Of a stretch of DNA of 64,000 nt, positions 50,135 to 60,345 are shown piece by piece. The DNA comes from an uncultured Actinomycetes bacterium (GTDB lineage: Bacteria; Actinomycetota; UBA4738; HRBIN12). The translations under genes were made by a program, and so were the position numbers. The notes beneath the pieces are model-generated. The model saw nothing but the letters and a program-made list of their open reading frames with translations, did not search any database and was not told where the DNA came from. Numbering within the stretch: the stretch's first letter is position 1; each line of letters opens with the position of its first letter. Location: positions 160,001-224,000 of the forward strand of contig CAVPIB010000001.1 of the NCBI GenBank assembly GCA_963704885.1, in the 5' to 3' direction.

Positions 50135-50227
50135 CTCGCGCTTCCTTCTCCGCGCTGCTTGAGCCGGCCCCCAACACGCGCGACGATAGCCGGACGCCGC
50201 GAGCTCGTTGCTGCGGCGTCTCAAACG

Positions 50228-50788
50228 ATGAAGAAACGTGTGGTCCGCGCGGAGGAGTTCGAGGTCGTCGACGAGAGCGGCGGCGTTCGACTGCGCATCG
50301 GCCTGGGCAACGACGACTCGCCCTTCTTCTCCATGCTCGATCCTGCCGGTCAGGTTCGCGCCCGCTTCGGTCTGTCCTCCGACGGGTCGGCGGGCCTCGC
50401 GATCGGCGACGACAACGGCAAGGTCCGCGCGACGCTTGGACTTTCGTCGGATGGATCGGCCAGCCTGGCGTTCGGCGACAAGAACGGACGGATCCGCGCC
50501 AAGTTCGGTCTGGCGCCGGAGGCCTCGCCCACGTTGGGCATGCAGGTCCGAAGCGGCGAACTGCATCAGGTCTACAGCCTGGCCGAACAGGGATCACCGA
50601 CGATGGGCCTGTACGACAAGGCCGGAAAGGTCCGGGTGAGGCTGGGCCTGGCCGCCGAAGGCTCGCCGGTGCTCCGGCTACTCGATCACGAGGGCGAGCT
50701 GCGGGCCGTGGTCGGCCTGGCCGGTGACGGCAGCCCGTTCATCCAGTTCATGGATGAACAGAAGGCGCCCACCTGGACGATGCGATGA
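50228..50788 (+). CDS. hypothetical beta-repeat protein (7 x 23 aa)
   Basis: Repeat unit D-x-x-G-x-V-R-x-x-x-G-L-x-x-[DE]-G-S; stop overlaps the next ATG. Confidence 0.75.
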   Translation: MKKRVVRAEEFEVVDESGGVRLRIGLGNDDSPFFSMLDPAGQVRARFGLSSDGSAGLAIGDDNGKVRATLGLSSDGSASLAFGDKNGRIRAKFGLAPEASPTLGMQVRSGELHQVYSLAEQGSPTMGLYDKAGKVRVRLGLAAEGSPVLRLLDHEGELRAVVGLAGDGSPFIQFMDEQKAPTWTMR

Positions 50789-51294
50789 CGGGGTGGTGGG
50801 CCGCGGCGTTCGTGGCCCAGTGGCTCCTGGTCCTCGTGCTTGCAGTGGTGATCGTTGCGCTTGCCCGTCAGGTGGGAACACTCCATCTGCGTCTCGGGCC
50901 TCGTGGCGCCCTGGAGGTTGACTCCGAGGGCCCCGCGTTGGGCGAGGCGCCGCCCCCCACACCGGGGATCGACGCCTCAGGCGCGCGCGTGCTGGTCGGC
51001 GGTCCCGGCCCGGGGCGCCTGATCCTGTTCTCGTCTCCTTCGTGTCCGATCTGTCAGGACGTGGCGCCTGGGATCCCCGCCGCCGCCGCCGCCGTGCGGA
51101 TGGCCCCGATGGTGCTGCACGACCCCGAGCTGGAACACGTCTACGGAGTGCCGGGGACCCCGTTCCTCCTGGTGATGGACGAGTTCGGCGTGGTCCGCGC
51201 GAAGGGGACCGTGAACAACCTCGAACAGGTCGAGGGTCTGGTGGATACGGCGCTTCGCCGCATCGAGGAGGTGCCGGAGCGACGGGCAAGCTGA
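50785..51294 (+). CDS. mauD: MauD-like membrane-anchored thioredoxin-fold protein
   Basis: ALARQVGTLHLRLGPRGAL, GP..G..PP, FSSPSCPIC, GTPF, AKGTVNNLEQVEGL. Confidence 0.85.
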   Translation: MTGWWAAAFVAQWLLVLVLAVVIVALARQVGTLHLRLGPRGALEVDSEGPALGEAPPPTPGIDASGARVLVGGPGPGRLILFSSPSCPICQDVAPGIPAAAAAVRMAPMVLHDPELEHVYGVPGTPFLLVMDEFGVVRAKGTVNNLEQVEGLVDTALRRIEEVPERRAS

Positions 51295-51818
51295 TCGCGA
51301 TCGAGCGGGCGGAACGGACCCTCGCGCGGCGAACCAGCCGGCGAGGGTTCCTTGGGAAACTGGGCCGCGGCGTGGTCGCCTTGGCCGGCGGCGGCGTGGT
51401 CGCCACGGCCCTCGCGCCGGGACGGGCCTCGGCGCACCACATCTGCGGGCATCTGTACACGACCGAGTCCTGCCCGCATCCGTTCGGCAAGCTCGCGAGA
51501 ACAGACAACTTCGGTTACCCGGTCCATCCGGTATATGGCTATCCCGTGGACGATGAGGGCGCGGTCTACTCCGATCCAGCGGCGCAGGTCAGGAGCAAGG
51601 TCTGTCAGCAGATCGTGCCGTCGCTCTATCACTTCGTGAAGAACCCTCGCTACGGCGGAGGCTGGACGCGGTGCTGCAACGGCCGTCTGCGCCACATCCA
51701 GGACTGCTGCTCGACCTCTCGGATCCGGATCAACGGCGACTATTCGGTGACCGGCTACTGCCCGACGCGGTTGCGCGTCTTCTGCATCACGTATCGCGAG
51801 TTAGAGGGCACGTGCTAG
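51291..51818 (+). CDS. Tat-exported Cys-rich protein resembling the amine dehydrogenase light chain (MauA-like); non-canonical start
   Basis: SRRGFL Tat motif, ASA cleavage site, 10 Cys, WTRCC...DCC...YC...FC pattern. Confidence 0.75.
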   Translation: MIAIERAERTLARRTSRRGFLGKLGRGVVALAGGGVVATALAPGRASAHHICGHLYTTESCPHPFGKLARTDNFGYPVHPVYGYPVDDEGAVYSDPAAQVRSKVCQQIVPSLYHFVKNPRYGGGWTRCCNGRLRHIQDCCSTSRIRINGDYSVTGYCPTRLRVFCITYRELEGTC

Positions 51819-53029
51819 ACGGTTCGTTGGTGGTGGCCCTGGTCGTCGCCTCTGCGGTCGCCGGCTGGTCGGCCCTCCACGGACCCTGAGGTCTGTCGAT
51901 GGTGGAGACCATCACCCCCGTGGTCCACGGGGGACGCGCGCGGTGGCTGAGCACGTTGGTGCTGCATACGCTCGGGGCCGCTGTCACGGCGGGCGTGTTC
52001 GGCGCGGCGCTCGGGTGGGTCGGTGGACTCCTGGGCGCGCCCTGGGGGCGACCCGGTCTGGTAGTCCTCGCGGCTTTCGCCGCCGCATATGGGCTCGCCG
52101 AGCTCTCACGACGCGGCCGGCTCCCCATCCCGCAGCTCCGCCGACAGGTTCCTGATTGGTGGCGAACCTTCTTCGGCCGACAGGTGGCCGCCGTCCTTTA
52201 TGGCGCGGGCCTTGGGATCGGGTTCTTCACGTACCTCGCAGAGGGAACCCTCGTCGTCGTGACGTTCGCGGCGCTCGCCAGTGGACGTCCGGAGGTGGGC
52301 GCGCTGTTGATGGCGCCGTTCGGACTGGTGCGAGGGCTCTCGGCCGCCGTAGCCTGGCGATCGGATACGCCCGAACGGAGCCGGGCGCTGGTCGACCGGC
52401 TGGTATCGGCGCCCGAGCGCCGCAGGAAGGTAGCGAACGCACTCGCTCTGGCGGCGATCGTGGTCACGGGCGCCGTGGCCGCGATCCAGACGCCGCGCGG
52501 CGGCTGGCAGGTCTTGGGGGCAGCGGCGCTGGCCGCGGTCTTCTCGTGGAGCGCGGCATCGAAGCTGCTCCCCACCGCGCGATGGCGTCGGGCGCTGGCT
52601 GCCCACCGGCTCCCGGGCGTCGTGGAGCGGATCGCCTCGTGGTCTGTGCCGGTCGGTGAGGCGTTGGTGCCCGTGCTGGTTGTTCTCGGGTATCCGCGCG
52701 TGGGCGCTGCCTGGGCGCTGGTGCTCATGGGTATGTTCTCGATCGAGCTGGTCCGCGTTCGCGGCCTGGTGGGTGTGCGCGTGCCGTGTGGGTGCTTCGG
52801 GGGACGGGGGACCGTCGATGTCCGGCACGCGTTGTTCCGCAACGCCGGGCTCGCCGGGCTCGCGGTGTTCGTCCTCGTTCTCGGGGTCGACCGCGCCGCC
52901 TCGTGGTGGCCGGAGGTTCCAGGCAGAGCGGATCTGGTGCCGCTCCTCGTTGCGGCCAGCGCCGTCTCGGCGGCTATGCTGACGGCCTGGCGGGCGTCTT
53001 CTTGGCTGGCCAAAGGCAGGGGGGCATGA
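51812..53029 (+). CDS. MauF-MauE fusion membrane protein, predicted selenoprotein (UGA 51887-51889 = Sec26)
   Basis: GTG 51812 overlaps the upstream stop; 25 hydrophobic codons, then in-frame TGA continuing GLSMVETITP; PQLRRQVP and LYGAGLG.GF.TY (MauF-like); VPCGCFG...RN (MauE). Confidence 0.75.
51915..51933 (+). promoter_or_regulatory. candidate bacterial SECIS hairpin
   Basis: CCCCCGTG-GTC-CACGGGGG perfect 8-bp stem; loop begins GU, G is 34 nt after the UGA; extra GGTCT/AGACC stem 51890-51910. Confidence 0.55.
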
Positions 53030-53658
53030 CGGGGCGGATCCTGCGCGGGATCGCACCGTTCGCTTTGGTGGCCGCAACGGTCGTGGGTGTGGCGGTCGTG
53101 GCGATGGCTGCCGGACCGGTCGTTCCGGGGCCGCGGGCGCAGGTCGACGATCCGAACGACACGCGAGGTCCGCTCGACATCAGGCGCGTCTGGTTCGAAG
53201 ACCCAGCGGACGCTCCGCCGAACTGGACCATCGTCACGTACGGCCCCTGGCACCCGAAGCGGCTCTACGACAGGGGTTTCACGTTCGTCTTCCTGGATAC
53301 GACCGGCACGGACAGAGCCGAGTACTACGTGCTTATCCGCTCGGTGGGGCGTGCGTTGGCGGGTTCGCTCTGGCGTGACCCCAAACGCGGCGGCGACATC
53401 AAACTCCTGCCGATCGGTGTGACGCGATCCTCGAACGCGAGCCTCACCCTGGAGATCCCGCTGAGGAAGCTCGAGGTAGGTCCGTTCCGGACCTACTACG
53501 GCTGGTACGCCGTGACTACGTTCACGGGTCGGGTGTGCCGCGCCACGTGCATCGACCGGACGCCGGATACCGGAGCGTTCGATCAGCCGATCGGTATCCC
53601 GTCGCCCACGCCCACCGGGAGCCCGACGGCGTCGGTCGGCAGCGATGAACGAACGTGA
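53026..53658 (+). CDS. secreted hypothetical protein
   Basis: ATGA-coupled start, signal peptide, DDPNDTRGPLDI, CRATC.DRTPD, PSPT tail. Confidence 0.7.
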   Translation: MTGRILRGIAPFALVAATVVGVAVVAMAAGPVVPGPRAQVDDPNDTRGPLDIRRVWFEDPADAPPNWTIVTYGPWHPKRLYDRGFTFVFLDTTGTDRAEYYVLIRSVGRALAGSLWRDPKRGGDIKLLPIGVTRSSNASLTLEIPLRKLEVGPFRTYYGWYAVTTFTGRVCRATCIDRTPDTGAFDQPIGIPSPTPTGSPTASVGSDERT

Positions 53659-58953: not shown

Positions 58954-58966
58954 ACTGGAACGCGAA

Positions 58967-59039
58967 GGGGACGTAGCTCAGCTGGTAGAGCACCTGCTTT
59001 GCAAGCAGGGGGTCGGCGGTTCGAGTCCGCTCGTCTCCA
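58967..59039 (+). tRNA. tRNA-Ala(TGC); CCA not encoded
   Basis: GGGGACG/CGTCTCC acceptor with G3:U70, anticodon loop TTTGCAA, GGTTCGAGTCC. Confidence 0.97.
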
Positions 59040-59066
59040 CGCCGTCTCCACGCCGACTCTCCACGC
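59032..59066 (+). repeat. tandem triplication of the tRNA-Ala 3' end (CGTCTCCACGC)
   Basis: Copies at 59032, 59043 and 59054 (third has a 2-nt insertion). Confidence 0.8.
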
Positions 59067-59156
59067 CGGATTCATCCGAGCCGACTACGCGGATCAGCCA
59101 TCACAGGCCGTACCATGTCGGGGTCCATCGTCGAGATCACAGATTCGGAGGCGTCG

Positions 59157-59648
59157 ATGAAGCTGACCAGGTTCCTGGCCGTGTTGATCGTCGGAGCATT
59201 CGTCCTCGCCGCATGCGGTGGGGGCGATGACGGGGATACGGTGTCCCCTGCGGCCGGTGACGGCGGCGGGGACACCGGTGGAGTCACGGGTGTCTTCGAC
59301 ACCGCCGAATGCGCACAGGCGGTCACCGCCTGGAGCGCCGCCGCGGCCGCCGTGCCGGCGGCGATGAGCGGATCGGCCGGCGACCTGGATACCACGCTCG
59401 CCCAGCTCCAGGCGTTCGCGGACGCGGCGCCCGAGGAGATCCGGGCGGATCTGGTGCTCGTCTACCAGGGATACGGCGCGTTCATGACAGCCATACAGGA
59501 CTCCGGCTACGACCCGAGCAGCGGTGAGGTGCCGTCCGCCGACGCGATGGCCGCGATGGAGGCGGCGAGCGCGACACTCGATGATCCCGAGTTCACGGCG
59601 GCGTCCGACCGCGTGAGCGCGTGGTTCGACGCTAACTGTGGTGGCTGA
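59157..59648 (+). CDS. lipoprotein, hypothetical
   Basis: GGAGG SD, lipobox LAAC, APEEIRAD helical domain. Confidence 0.8.
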   Translation: MKLTRFLAVLIVGAFVLAACGGGDDGDTVSPAAGDGGGDTGGVTGVFDTAECAQAVTAWSAAAAAVPAAMSGSAGDLDTTLAQLQAFADAAPEEIRADLVLVYQGYGAFMTAIQDSGYDPSSGEVPSADAMAAMEAASATLDDPEFTAASDRVSAWFDANCGG

Positions 59649-59682
59649 CCGACCTACCAACTGAGCGACCTATCATCGGGCC

Positions 59683-60345
59683 GTGCATCGGTTCATCGCG
59701 GTCCTGGTCGTGGCGGCCTGCTCGCTGGTGCCCTCCGTGGCCTCGGATGCCGCACCCCGCCGCCTTCCGGTGTTCGAGGCCGATGTGTCGATGTTGGATC
59801 GAGCCGCCCGGGAGCTGATGATCGGGCGCTCCTGGCACGCCGGCTGTCCGGTACCGCTGCGTGATCTCCGGCTGATAGAGCTCACCTACTACGGCTTCGA
59901 CGGACACGCGCATCGGGGCCAGCTGGTCGTCCATCGTTGGTACGCCGCTGGATTCGTCGGGGTGTTCCACCGGCTCTACGACGCCCGCTACCCGATCAGA
60001 AGGATGCGACTGGTCGACCGCTACGGCGCCGACGACTCGCGCTCGATGGCGGCAGATAACACGTCGGCGTTCAACTGCCGGCTTCGCGCAGGGTCTTCCA
60101 CAGAGTGGTCTCAGCATGCGTACGGGCGCGCCATCGACGTGAACCCGGTGGAGAACCCCTTCGTCACGCCCACTCACGTATCTCCGCCCGCGGGGATCCA
60201 CTACTTGGATCGAACGCAGACCCTGCCGGGCATGATCCACCTTCGCGACCGGGTCTGGTGGGCGTTCCACGCGATCGGGTGGGTGTGGGGCGGCACCTGG
60301 ACAGGCACGATCGACTACCAGCACTTCAGCGCGAACGGGCGGTAG
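59683..60345 (+). CDS. M15 family peptidoglycan metallopeptidase (D,D-carboxypeptidase-like)
   Basis: NTSAFNCR, SQHAYGRAIDVNP, WGG.W..DYQHF. Confidence 0.88.
   Translation: MHRFIAVLVVAACSLVPSVASDAAPRRLPVFEADVSMLDRAARELMIGRSWHAGCPVPLRDLRLIELTYYGFDGHAHRGQLVVHRWYAAGFVGVFHRLYDARYPIRRMRLVDRYGADDSRSMAADNTSAFNCRLRAGSSTEWSQHAYGRAIDVNPVENPFVTPTHVSPPAGIHYLDRTQTLPGMIHLRDRVWWAFHAIGWVWGGTWTGTIDYQHFSANGR

Follow-up and report, generated by a model that had tools for sequence, protein, structure and literature searches.

A predicted selenocysteine in the first membrane helix of a MauF-like/MauE fusion protein from uncultured soil Actinomycetota

In uncultured soil Actinomycetota, one membrane redox protein almost certainly has selenocysteine (Sec), encoded by an in-frame UGA codon, in the place of the single essential Cys of its relatives, judging by comparison of its gene with theirs. 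The gene lies at positions 51812-53029 of a 64,000-nucleotide (nt) stretch, hereafter the window, from the genome of an uncultured Actinomycetes bacterium (GenBank assembly GCA_963704885.1, contig CAVPIB010000001.1, positions 160,001 to 224,000 of the forward strand). Its predicted product is one 405-residue polytopic membrane protein, a fusion of a MauF-like domain with a MauE domain. The TGA is conserved, the DNA upstream of it evolves as coding sequence, Cys relatives place their Cys at the same column, the genome encodes Sec machinery, and the RNA downstream of the codon is under constraint; together these observations lead us to read the product as a Sec-containing MauF-like/MauE fusion of 405 amino acids. 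This reading as a whole, which comprises a protein with Sec at residue 26 (Sec26), RNA-directed insertion, membership of an operon and a proposed relay function, is in our judgment highly probable.

Reading frame and conservation of the UGA codon

The gene consists of the following features.

51812..53029, + strand: whole gene of the predicted selenoprotein, MauF-like domain with Sec26 plus MauE; alignments with orthologues span residues 1-405 and contain a single internal TGA
51812..51814, + strand: GTG start, which overlaps the TAG (51816-18) that ends the Cys-rich gene upstream
51812..51886, + strand: predicted first transmembrane helix, residues 1-25, as indicated by codon-position divergence and by helix 4-23 of a structural model
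51887..51889, + strand: in-frame TGA, predicted Sec26 in the motif GP-U-G; conserved, and aligned with the WSPCG Cys of Cys forms and MauF
51812..52516, + strand: MauF-like polytopic membrane domain, residues 1 to ~235, from hhalign against an annotated MauF
52520..52879, + strand: MauE domain with CGC motif, residues 237-356 (PF07291, 67.4 bits against a gathering cut-off of 27, E 2e-18)

The frame opens at GTG 51812-14 and runs through 25 hydrophobic codons (MLDGSLVVALVVASAVAGWSALHGP) to TGA 51887-89. The codons GGT CTG TCG then lead in the same frame to ATG 51899, which is the start given by the open reading frame listing, and the frame stays open to TGA 53027-29. If the first TGA is read as Sec, the frame has 405 codons and the protein reads ..HGP-U-GLSMVETITPVVHGGR across the Sec site. 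The initial annotation of this DNA had described the GTG, the 25 codons, the TGA and the continuing frame, and had proposed a Sec protein of about 405 amino acids fused to a MauE domain with a VPCGCFG motif. Each of these elements is seen in the sequence: the MauE half passes its Pfam cut-off, and VPCGCFG is present with Cys326 at 52787-89 and Cys328 at 52793-95.

An AlphaFold 2 (AF2) model of the full-length protein, built with Cys for Sec, is confidently predicted (predicted local distance difference test score, pLDDT, 92.2; predicted template modelling score, pTM, 0.86). It has helices at residues 4-23 and 25-33, with a break at GPUG in helix 1, and it places the CGC motif in a beta-hairpin (residues 323-336) between strands 323-325 and 334-336. 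Foldseek found nothing in the PDB that matches the model at E <=0.001 (best E 0.053, TM <=0.25), a null result that carries no information on fold family.

The in-frame TGA recurs across the relatives that were compared, which are kin rather than independent samples and which for some counts include unpublished genomes. Among 41 relatives, 27 genomes match the protein; the TGA is present in all 27 listed matches that reach residue 26, and the stop-free matches begin at residue 88 or later. It occupies the same column at 19 of 19 loci with the N-terminus present (a 20th locus ends at a contig edge), in the context ..AGWSALHGP*GLSMVETI(T/S)PVV(H/Y)GG.., where the asterisk is the TGA. When the 294 genomes of the class were searched with the N-terminal domain (N-domain) alone, 209 matched. 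Every listed match that reaches residue 26 again has TGA, and the 10 listed stop-free matches all start at residue 57 or later; a further 88 matches fall outside those listed. Across 141 Sec-form loci, the codon is TGA in all 87 distinct 63-nt sequences.

Contigs from four public sequencing runs (two DNA, two RNA-library) have only TGA at 51887-89, with neither TGC nor TGT, and differ at the neighboring third positions 51883 and 51892; these contigs come from relatives at ~88-98% identity, and those from RNA libraries do not prove transcription. In a sequencing-run index, no run contained half of the words (best share 0.21). Because the TGA is invariant in the 87 distinct sequences and in the four public runs, assembly error is excluded. 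The broader proposal of an assembly error or a decaying pseudogene has a negligible probability, since the 87 sequences come from many assemblies and purifying selection acts on both flanks of the codon.

This selection is visible in the divergence at the three codon positions among 34 distinct sequences, which is 0.277/0.231/0.438 in the 25 codons upstream of the TGA and 0.235/0.196/0.404 in the 40 codons downstream. The upstream segment thus diverges like coding DNA, and both flanks are under purifying selection. The three codons between the TGA and ATG 51899 behave in the same way. In the 87 sequences the Gly codon varies freely at its third position (GGC 45, GGG 24, GGA 10, GGT 8), as does the Leu codon (CTG 45, CTC 28, CTT 5, CTA 3), and the Gly-Leu-Ser that is preserved through these synonymous changes equals the G-[FL]-S of the Cys forms described below. 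The start is also recognizable in relatives, where the overlap with the upstream stop recurs as GTGCTAG or GTGCTGA. The distance from start to UGA is 25 codons in most genomes and 34 in one genus (g44), and two loci (L039 and L040) have only a CTG at the start position. At one further locus (L071, genome G197) the open frame after the UGA extends for 660 codons and ends in TAG, which suggests a longer fusion or a lost stop.

Cysteine counterparts and truncated database copies

From 15 N-domains we built a profile (A1), which retrieved 2374 cluster representatives at E <=0.001 out of the 1.84 billion searched. By hand count of the best 150 of these, 105 start at profile positions 30-33 with their own residues 1-3, which corresponds to the Met that follows the TGA, 29 are fragments that begin later, and 16 cover the Sec column. 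Fourteen of the 16 read ..WSPCGFSMVETIGP.., with WSPCG at the Sec column; they are ~500 amino acids long (range ~310-550). The other two are P0203, which reads WSSCGCSM, and P0146, which reads W. Column 26 (Cys or Sec) is invariant in a 59-row alignment (A2) and is the only invariant Cys/Sec column of the N-domain. Met30 and Gly27 are invariant as well, also in the Cys forms and in the MauF alignment. The Cys forms (P0217-P0263; loci L153-L158) are fused to a C-terminal region of ~270 amino acids that is not MauE, and for which TolB/LpqB beta-propeller matches are faint and all under their cut-offs.

The homology of the N-domain points to MauF. When the N-domain was searched among plasmids with tblastn, the sole match (E 0.03) was the annotated MauF of Indioceanicola profundi (NZ_CP030128.1), which is encoded in a cluster with the order mauF-large subunit-mauE-mauD-mauA-mauJ. 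Alignment of the A1 profile with this protein by hhalign extends over 205 columns (probability 97.9%, E 4.9e-13), and the Cys in its STWSPCGYSS segment aligns on U26. Pfam and NCBIfam hold no MauF model to score against, and the annotated MauF itself has no match there. The comparison shows the predicted Sec26 at the position of the single invariant Cys of WSPCG in MauF and its Cys relatives, as was anticipated in the initial annotation, where P-U-G was proposed to replace P-C-G.

That annotation had also placed the protein among relays of the MauF/CcdA/DsbD type. The MauF part of this assignment stands on the hhalign result, but the N-domain has no Pfam (E <=0.1) or NCBIfam match, DsbD and CcdA models included, and it has one redox residue rather than two. 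A distant superfamily link to CcdA/DsbD is nonetheless likely because P0203 passes the Pfam DsbD_2 model (34.4 bits versus a cut-off of 24.9).

The MauF-like domain is also found in other families of the phylum. In a phylum sample of 251 genomes, 44 match the Cys form P0221 at E <=1e-10; the match is stop-free in seven of these, contains a single TAG in one and has TGA in the rest, which belong to several families. The match with TAG and without TGA is at G309:C47:5831-6487. Stand-alone Sec forms of the MauF-like domain, ~200-250 amino acids long, appear in family f9 and in other families (e.g. loci L159, L164, L170 and L172), and 14 of the 17 genomes of f9 match. These stand-alone forms suggest that the selenoprotein family is wider than the MauE fusion.

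All database copies of the fusion that were found are cut short because gene callers stop at the in-frame UGA. The best 120 listed database homologues have 332-473 amino acids and cover <=93% of the query, there is no full-length Cys form of the fusion among them, and those named by NCBI are called MauE/DoxX family proteins of ~375 amino acids. The listed proteins start at the Met after the TGA. This truncation costs them the first membrane helix and, as the initial annotation had foreseen, the redox residue; both are missing from all 120 listed homologues and from 105 of the 150 best representatives.

These entries would be correct if the UGA ended a separate membrane peptide of 25 residues and the main protein restarted at ATG 51899. 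A GAGG sequence does lie 7 nt upstream of this ATG, Met30 is invariant, and the split form is called in every database entry found. The sequence UGA-GG always creates a GAGG at this spacing (window 51887-51901), and its presence probably explains why gene callers place the start here. Two genes would not account for the Gly-Leu-Ser codons between TGA and ATG, which evolve as coding sequence and match those of the Cys forms. The conservation of Met30 needs no start-site explanation, since both it and Gly27 are invariant in Cys forms that are not split and in the MauF alignment. A split would also remove exactly the one Cys that is invariant in the family. Furthermore, a plain restart leaves unexplained the frozen synonymous sites of two hairpins downstream of the UGA, and the lineage keeps the machinery for Sec insertion. 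We therefore regard a pair of genes as improbable and favor a single gene whose UGA would be decoded as Sec26.

Selenocysteine machinery and RNA structure after the UGA

All components of a Sec insertion system that the initial annotation had singled out were found in the genome to which the window belongs (completeness 97%). They are a tRNA-Sec (70.9 bits) that ARAGORN reads as SeC with anticodon tca, a selA gene (493 bits) adjoined by selB (321 bits), and selD. The selD gene was found twice with the same score (372.7 bits each) on two small contigs (G000:C20:5731-6654 and G000:C14:8433-9356), and these equal copies may reflect either a real duplication or a single region that entered the assembly two times. 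Of the 294 class genomes, 263 have selA, as do 104 of the 109 of good quality. To our knowledge, selenium use in Actinomycetota beyond formate dehydrogenase is little documented; here a whole uncultured class keeps the Sec machinery, and most of its genomes match the gene in the window.

In the same genome, an FdhA-type molybdopterin enzyme gene (G000:C4 ~58963-60129; locus L174) contains an in-frame TGA, at locus position 1615, in ..SCNRT-U-HAPSVVG.. Its matches to TIGR01553 are split and under the cut-off. The TGA is followed by a classical Sec insertion sequence (SECIS), GUGGUC-GGUCU-GGCCAC, whose loop lies at nt 22-26 from the UGA. This gene shows the Sec machinery to be in use, with at least one conventional client.

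Insertion of a residue other than Sec, such as Trp, Cys or Gly, through near-cognate decoding or a changed genetic code would also yield a full-length protein. In favor of this, the database protein P0146 reads W at the column in question (GPWGLSMVETI). However, P0146 forms a fusion with the upstream Cys-rich protein and probably reflects an artefact of gene calling, through a TGA=Trp code or a frame error. TGA also ends this gene and its neighbors, which means that the code is not reassigned. Relatives have their catalytic Cys at this column, a SECIS-like structure follows the codon, and the genome has the full Sec machinery. Decoding as another residue is accordingly very improbable, even more so than the two-gene arrangement, and Sec remains the residue that we predict for position 26.

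Two hairpins can form directly downstream of the UGA.

51898..51913, + strand: hairpin H1, GAUGGU-GGAG-ACCAUC, nt 12-27 counted from the U of UGA
51915..51933, + strand: hairpin H2, CCCCCGUG-GUC-CACGGGGG, nt 29-47 from the UGA, the hairpin noticed in the initial annotation

At the DNA level H2 is CCCCCGTG-GTC-CACGGGGG, a perfect stem whose loop occupies 51923-25. H1 and H2 recur throughout the Sec forms examined, and their stems are nearly frozen at synonymous sites when codon use in the rest of the same genes is taken as background. Among distinct sequences, the third positions in the H1 stem are fixed for Ser (TCG in 87 of 87; background 54%), for Thr (ACC in 85 of 85; background ACC 40%, ACG 53%) and for Ile (ATC in 87 of 87), while the H1 loop varies. 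In the H2 stem, Pro is CCC in 84 of 86 sequences (background 26%) and Gly is GGG in 85 of 86 (background 34%), and the codon before Pro ends in a pyrimidine in all six of the commonest codons listed. Third positions that fall in loops and spacers change far more readily. Three Val codons there are distributed as GTG 66 and GTC 10, as GTG 42 and GTC 41, and as GTG 47, GTC 35 and GTT 4; a Glu codon is GAG 73 and GAA 11, and a Gly codon is GGC 27, GGA 24 and GGG 12. Six Cys-form loci cannot form H1, and the Thr codon is ACG in four of five.

This comparison shows H1 and H2 as two elements that are both under selection at synonymous sites and that would direct Sec insertion. The earlier prediction of a SECIS-like hairpin after the UGA thus captured H2 correctly, with its stem as described and now found to be frozen at synonymous sites, but there are two constrained hairpins and not one. 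H2 resembles the FdhA SECIS of the same genome in forming a stem-loop soon after the UGA and in its loop region, GGUCC, which is close to the FdhA loop GGUCU. The two differ in that the FdhA loop lies at nt 22-26 from the UGA and the H2 loop region at nt 36-40, with the constrained H1 in between. If H1 forms, it would fold away 16 nt and could bring the GGUC-type H2, 34 nt downstream, as close to the UGA as is usual. In an unpublished genome, a distant Sec form retains H1 without H2, so either hairpin may be the SelB site. Such a two-hairpin element also offers a test case for SECIS tools that model a single hairpin.

Operon context, proposed function and known systems

The predicted selenoprotein gene is the fourth of a tightly coupled and conserved five-gene operon with overlapping stops and starts. 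In 56 loci with full flanks, all four neighbors are present in 54-56.

50159..50788, + strand: 209-residue repeat protein with GLSSDGSA-like repeats, first gene of the operon; a same-strand neighbor in 54 of 56 loci
50785..51294, + strand: MauD-like membrane-anchored thioredoxin with SCPIC motif, a same-strand upstream neighbor in all 56 loci
~51315..51818 (start approximate), + strand: Cys-rich protein with 10 Cys and a twin-arginine leader, in 56 of 56 loci
53026..53658, + strand: last gene of the operon, for a 210-residue protein whose N-terminus has a hydrophobic segment; present in all 56 loci, 54 of these on the same strand

The repeat protein has no Pfam match at cut-off (best E 0.057). 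The ATG of the MauD-like gene overlaps the stop of this first gene, and its product scores 76.8 bits with the MauD model TIGR02661, under the cut-off of 188.6. The start of the Cys-rich gene is unusual. There is no ATG, GTG or TTG between 51042 and the twin-arginine motif, and the only CTG near the stop of the MauD-like gene (TGA 51292-94) is at 51290, where it overlaps that stop. The Cys-rich gene may consequently use a non-canonical or coupled start. For its product, the AF2 model has a pLDDT of 50.8, and a profile search found no solved structure at E <=1. In one nearby Atlas cluster, PF02975 (MauA) is assigned to 17% of the members. The ATG of the last gene overlaps the stop of the selenoprotein gene, and its product, like that of the first gene, has no family in Pfam or NCBIfam.

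MauD, MauE and MauF have been proposed to take part in maturation of the small subunit of methylamine dehydrogenase, and it is from these roles that we infer a redox-relay function here. The UGA at 51887-89 would be decoded as Sec26 at the kink of the first transmembrane helix (GP-U-G), which would make the protein a membrane selenol/thiol-disulfide relay. Sec26 would exchange with the CGC pair of MauE, with the CxxC of the MauD-like protein, or with both. Together with this thioredoxin, the relay would form or rearrange the disulfides of the Cys-rich client, which would be exported by the twin-arginine translocation (TAT) route.

Several observations weigh against parts of this picture. As a single sequence, the 81-nt region folds unremarkably (z = -1.25), with an equally good fold in 21 of 200 shuffles. 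The two hairpins fall within the codons of a peptide that is itself strongly conserved (SMVETITPVVHGG), so only synonymous sites separate RNA constraint from protein constraint. Compared with the FdhA SECIS of the same genome, H2 has its loop 14 nt more distant from the UGA, and the H1 loop (GGAG) is without the GU of classical SECIS loops. Because the compared genomes are kin, the conservation counts overstate their independence. The GAGG before ATG 51899 makes internal initiation of a form without helix 1 possible. The N-domain has one redox residue where CcdA and DsbD have two. The Cys-rich client is MauA-like only in its leader, to which an hhalign comparison with MauA is confined (probability 94.8%, 34 columns). 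Finally, PF06433 (MauB) and PF02975 (MauA) have no match in the 97% complete genome; as a positive control, PF06433 finds MauB in a control record with 361.5 bits. These genes do not form a canonical methylamine dehydrogenase system.

A more far-reaching proposal combines these elements. It holds that an uncatalogued, widespread MauF-MauE family with Sec in a helix, a two-part SECIS and an operon for the maturation of a new TAT protein that is rich in Cys, has a leader of the MauA type and may be a quinocofactor protein occur together in soil Actinomycetota that are without methylamine dehydrogenase. We offer this combination tentatively and consider it doubtful in its full extent. If it is true, then the lone Cys of MauF would be its catalytic residue, and MauF and MauE would constitute one working unit.

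The comparison with catalogued selenoproteins suggests a new family of the familiar Cys-to-Sec kind. Table 1 of the review PMC13188914 (2026) gives 119 prokaryotic selenoprotein families. The membrane proteins in this table include the rhodanese/DsbD fusion-like TsoB (NF045694), MerT-like, YeeE/YedE, the SO_0444 transporter and SaoP. They resemble the protein described here in having Sec in or next to transmembrane segments and in having been predicted by comparison of Cys and Sec forms (PMC13188914). They differ in that none of those tabulated is MauF or MauE and in their motifs, e.g. UxxxxU, C/SxxU and GUxSG versus GPUG, and no MauF or MauE protein or GPUG motif stands among the 119 families of that table (PMC13188914). 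A term search of PMC12013277 gave no match. NCBIfam release 20 and Pfam have no model of a MauF-like selenoprotein. Literature searches found no MauE or MauF selenoprotein among the entries listed, where the hits for "MauF" dealt with matters other than the gene, and supplementary prediction lists (e.g. deep-Sep) may hold the family.

CcdA and DsbD have two conserved redox Cys, in helices 1 and 4. The protein in the window shares with them a redox residue at a Pro/Gly kink of helix 1 within a polytopic protein, but it matches neither DsbD_TM (PF02683) nor DsbD_2 (PF13386) and has one conserved redox residue. Its resemblance to MauE/DoxX proteins (PF07291) includes a score that passes the Pfam cut-off and the CGC motif, which is kept. 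In the annotated mau cluster, however, MauE is the product of a separate gene and has 192 amino acids, whereas here it is the C-terminal half of the predicted selenoprotein. With the MauF of I. profundi, the N-domain shares 205 homologous columns, the helix-1 motif, a PQxRRQVP loop motif and the company of MauE and MauD. The differences are the predicted Sec in place of the WSPCG Cys, the fusion to MauE, an identity of ~31%, and a genome in which neither the large nor a canonical small subunit of methylamine dehydrogenase was found. The role of MauF has stayed obscure. A change from Cys to Sec serves as a natural label of a catalytic residue, and it would provide MauF with a testable active site and with a partner, MauE.

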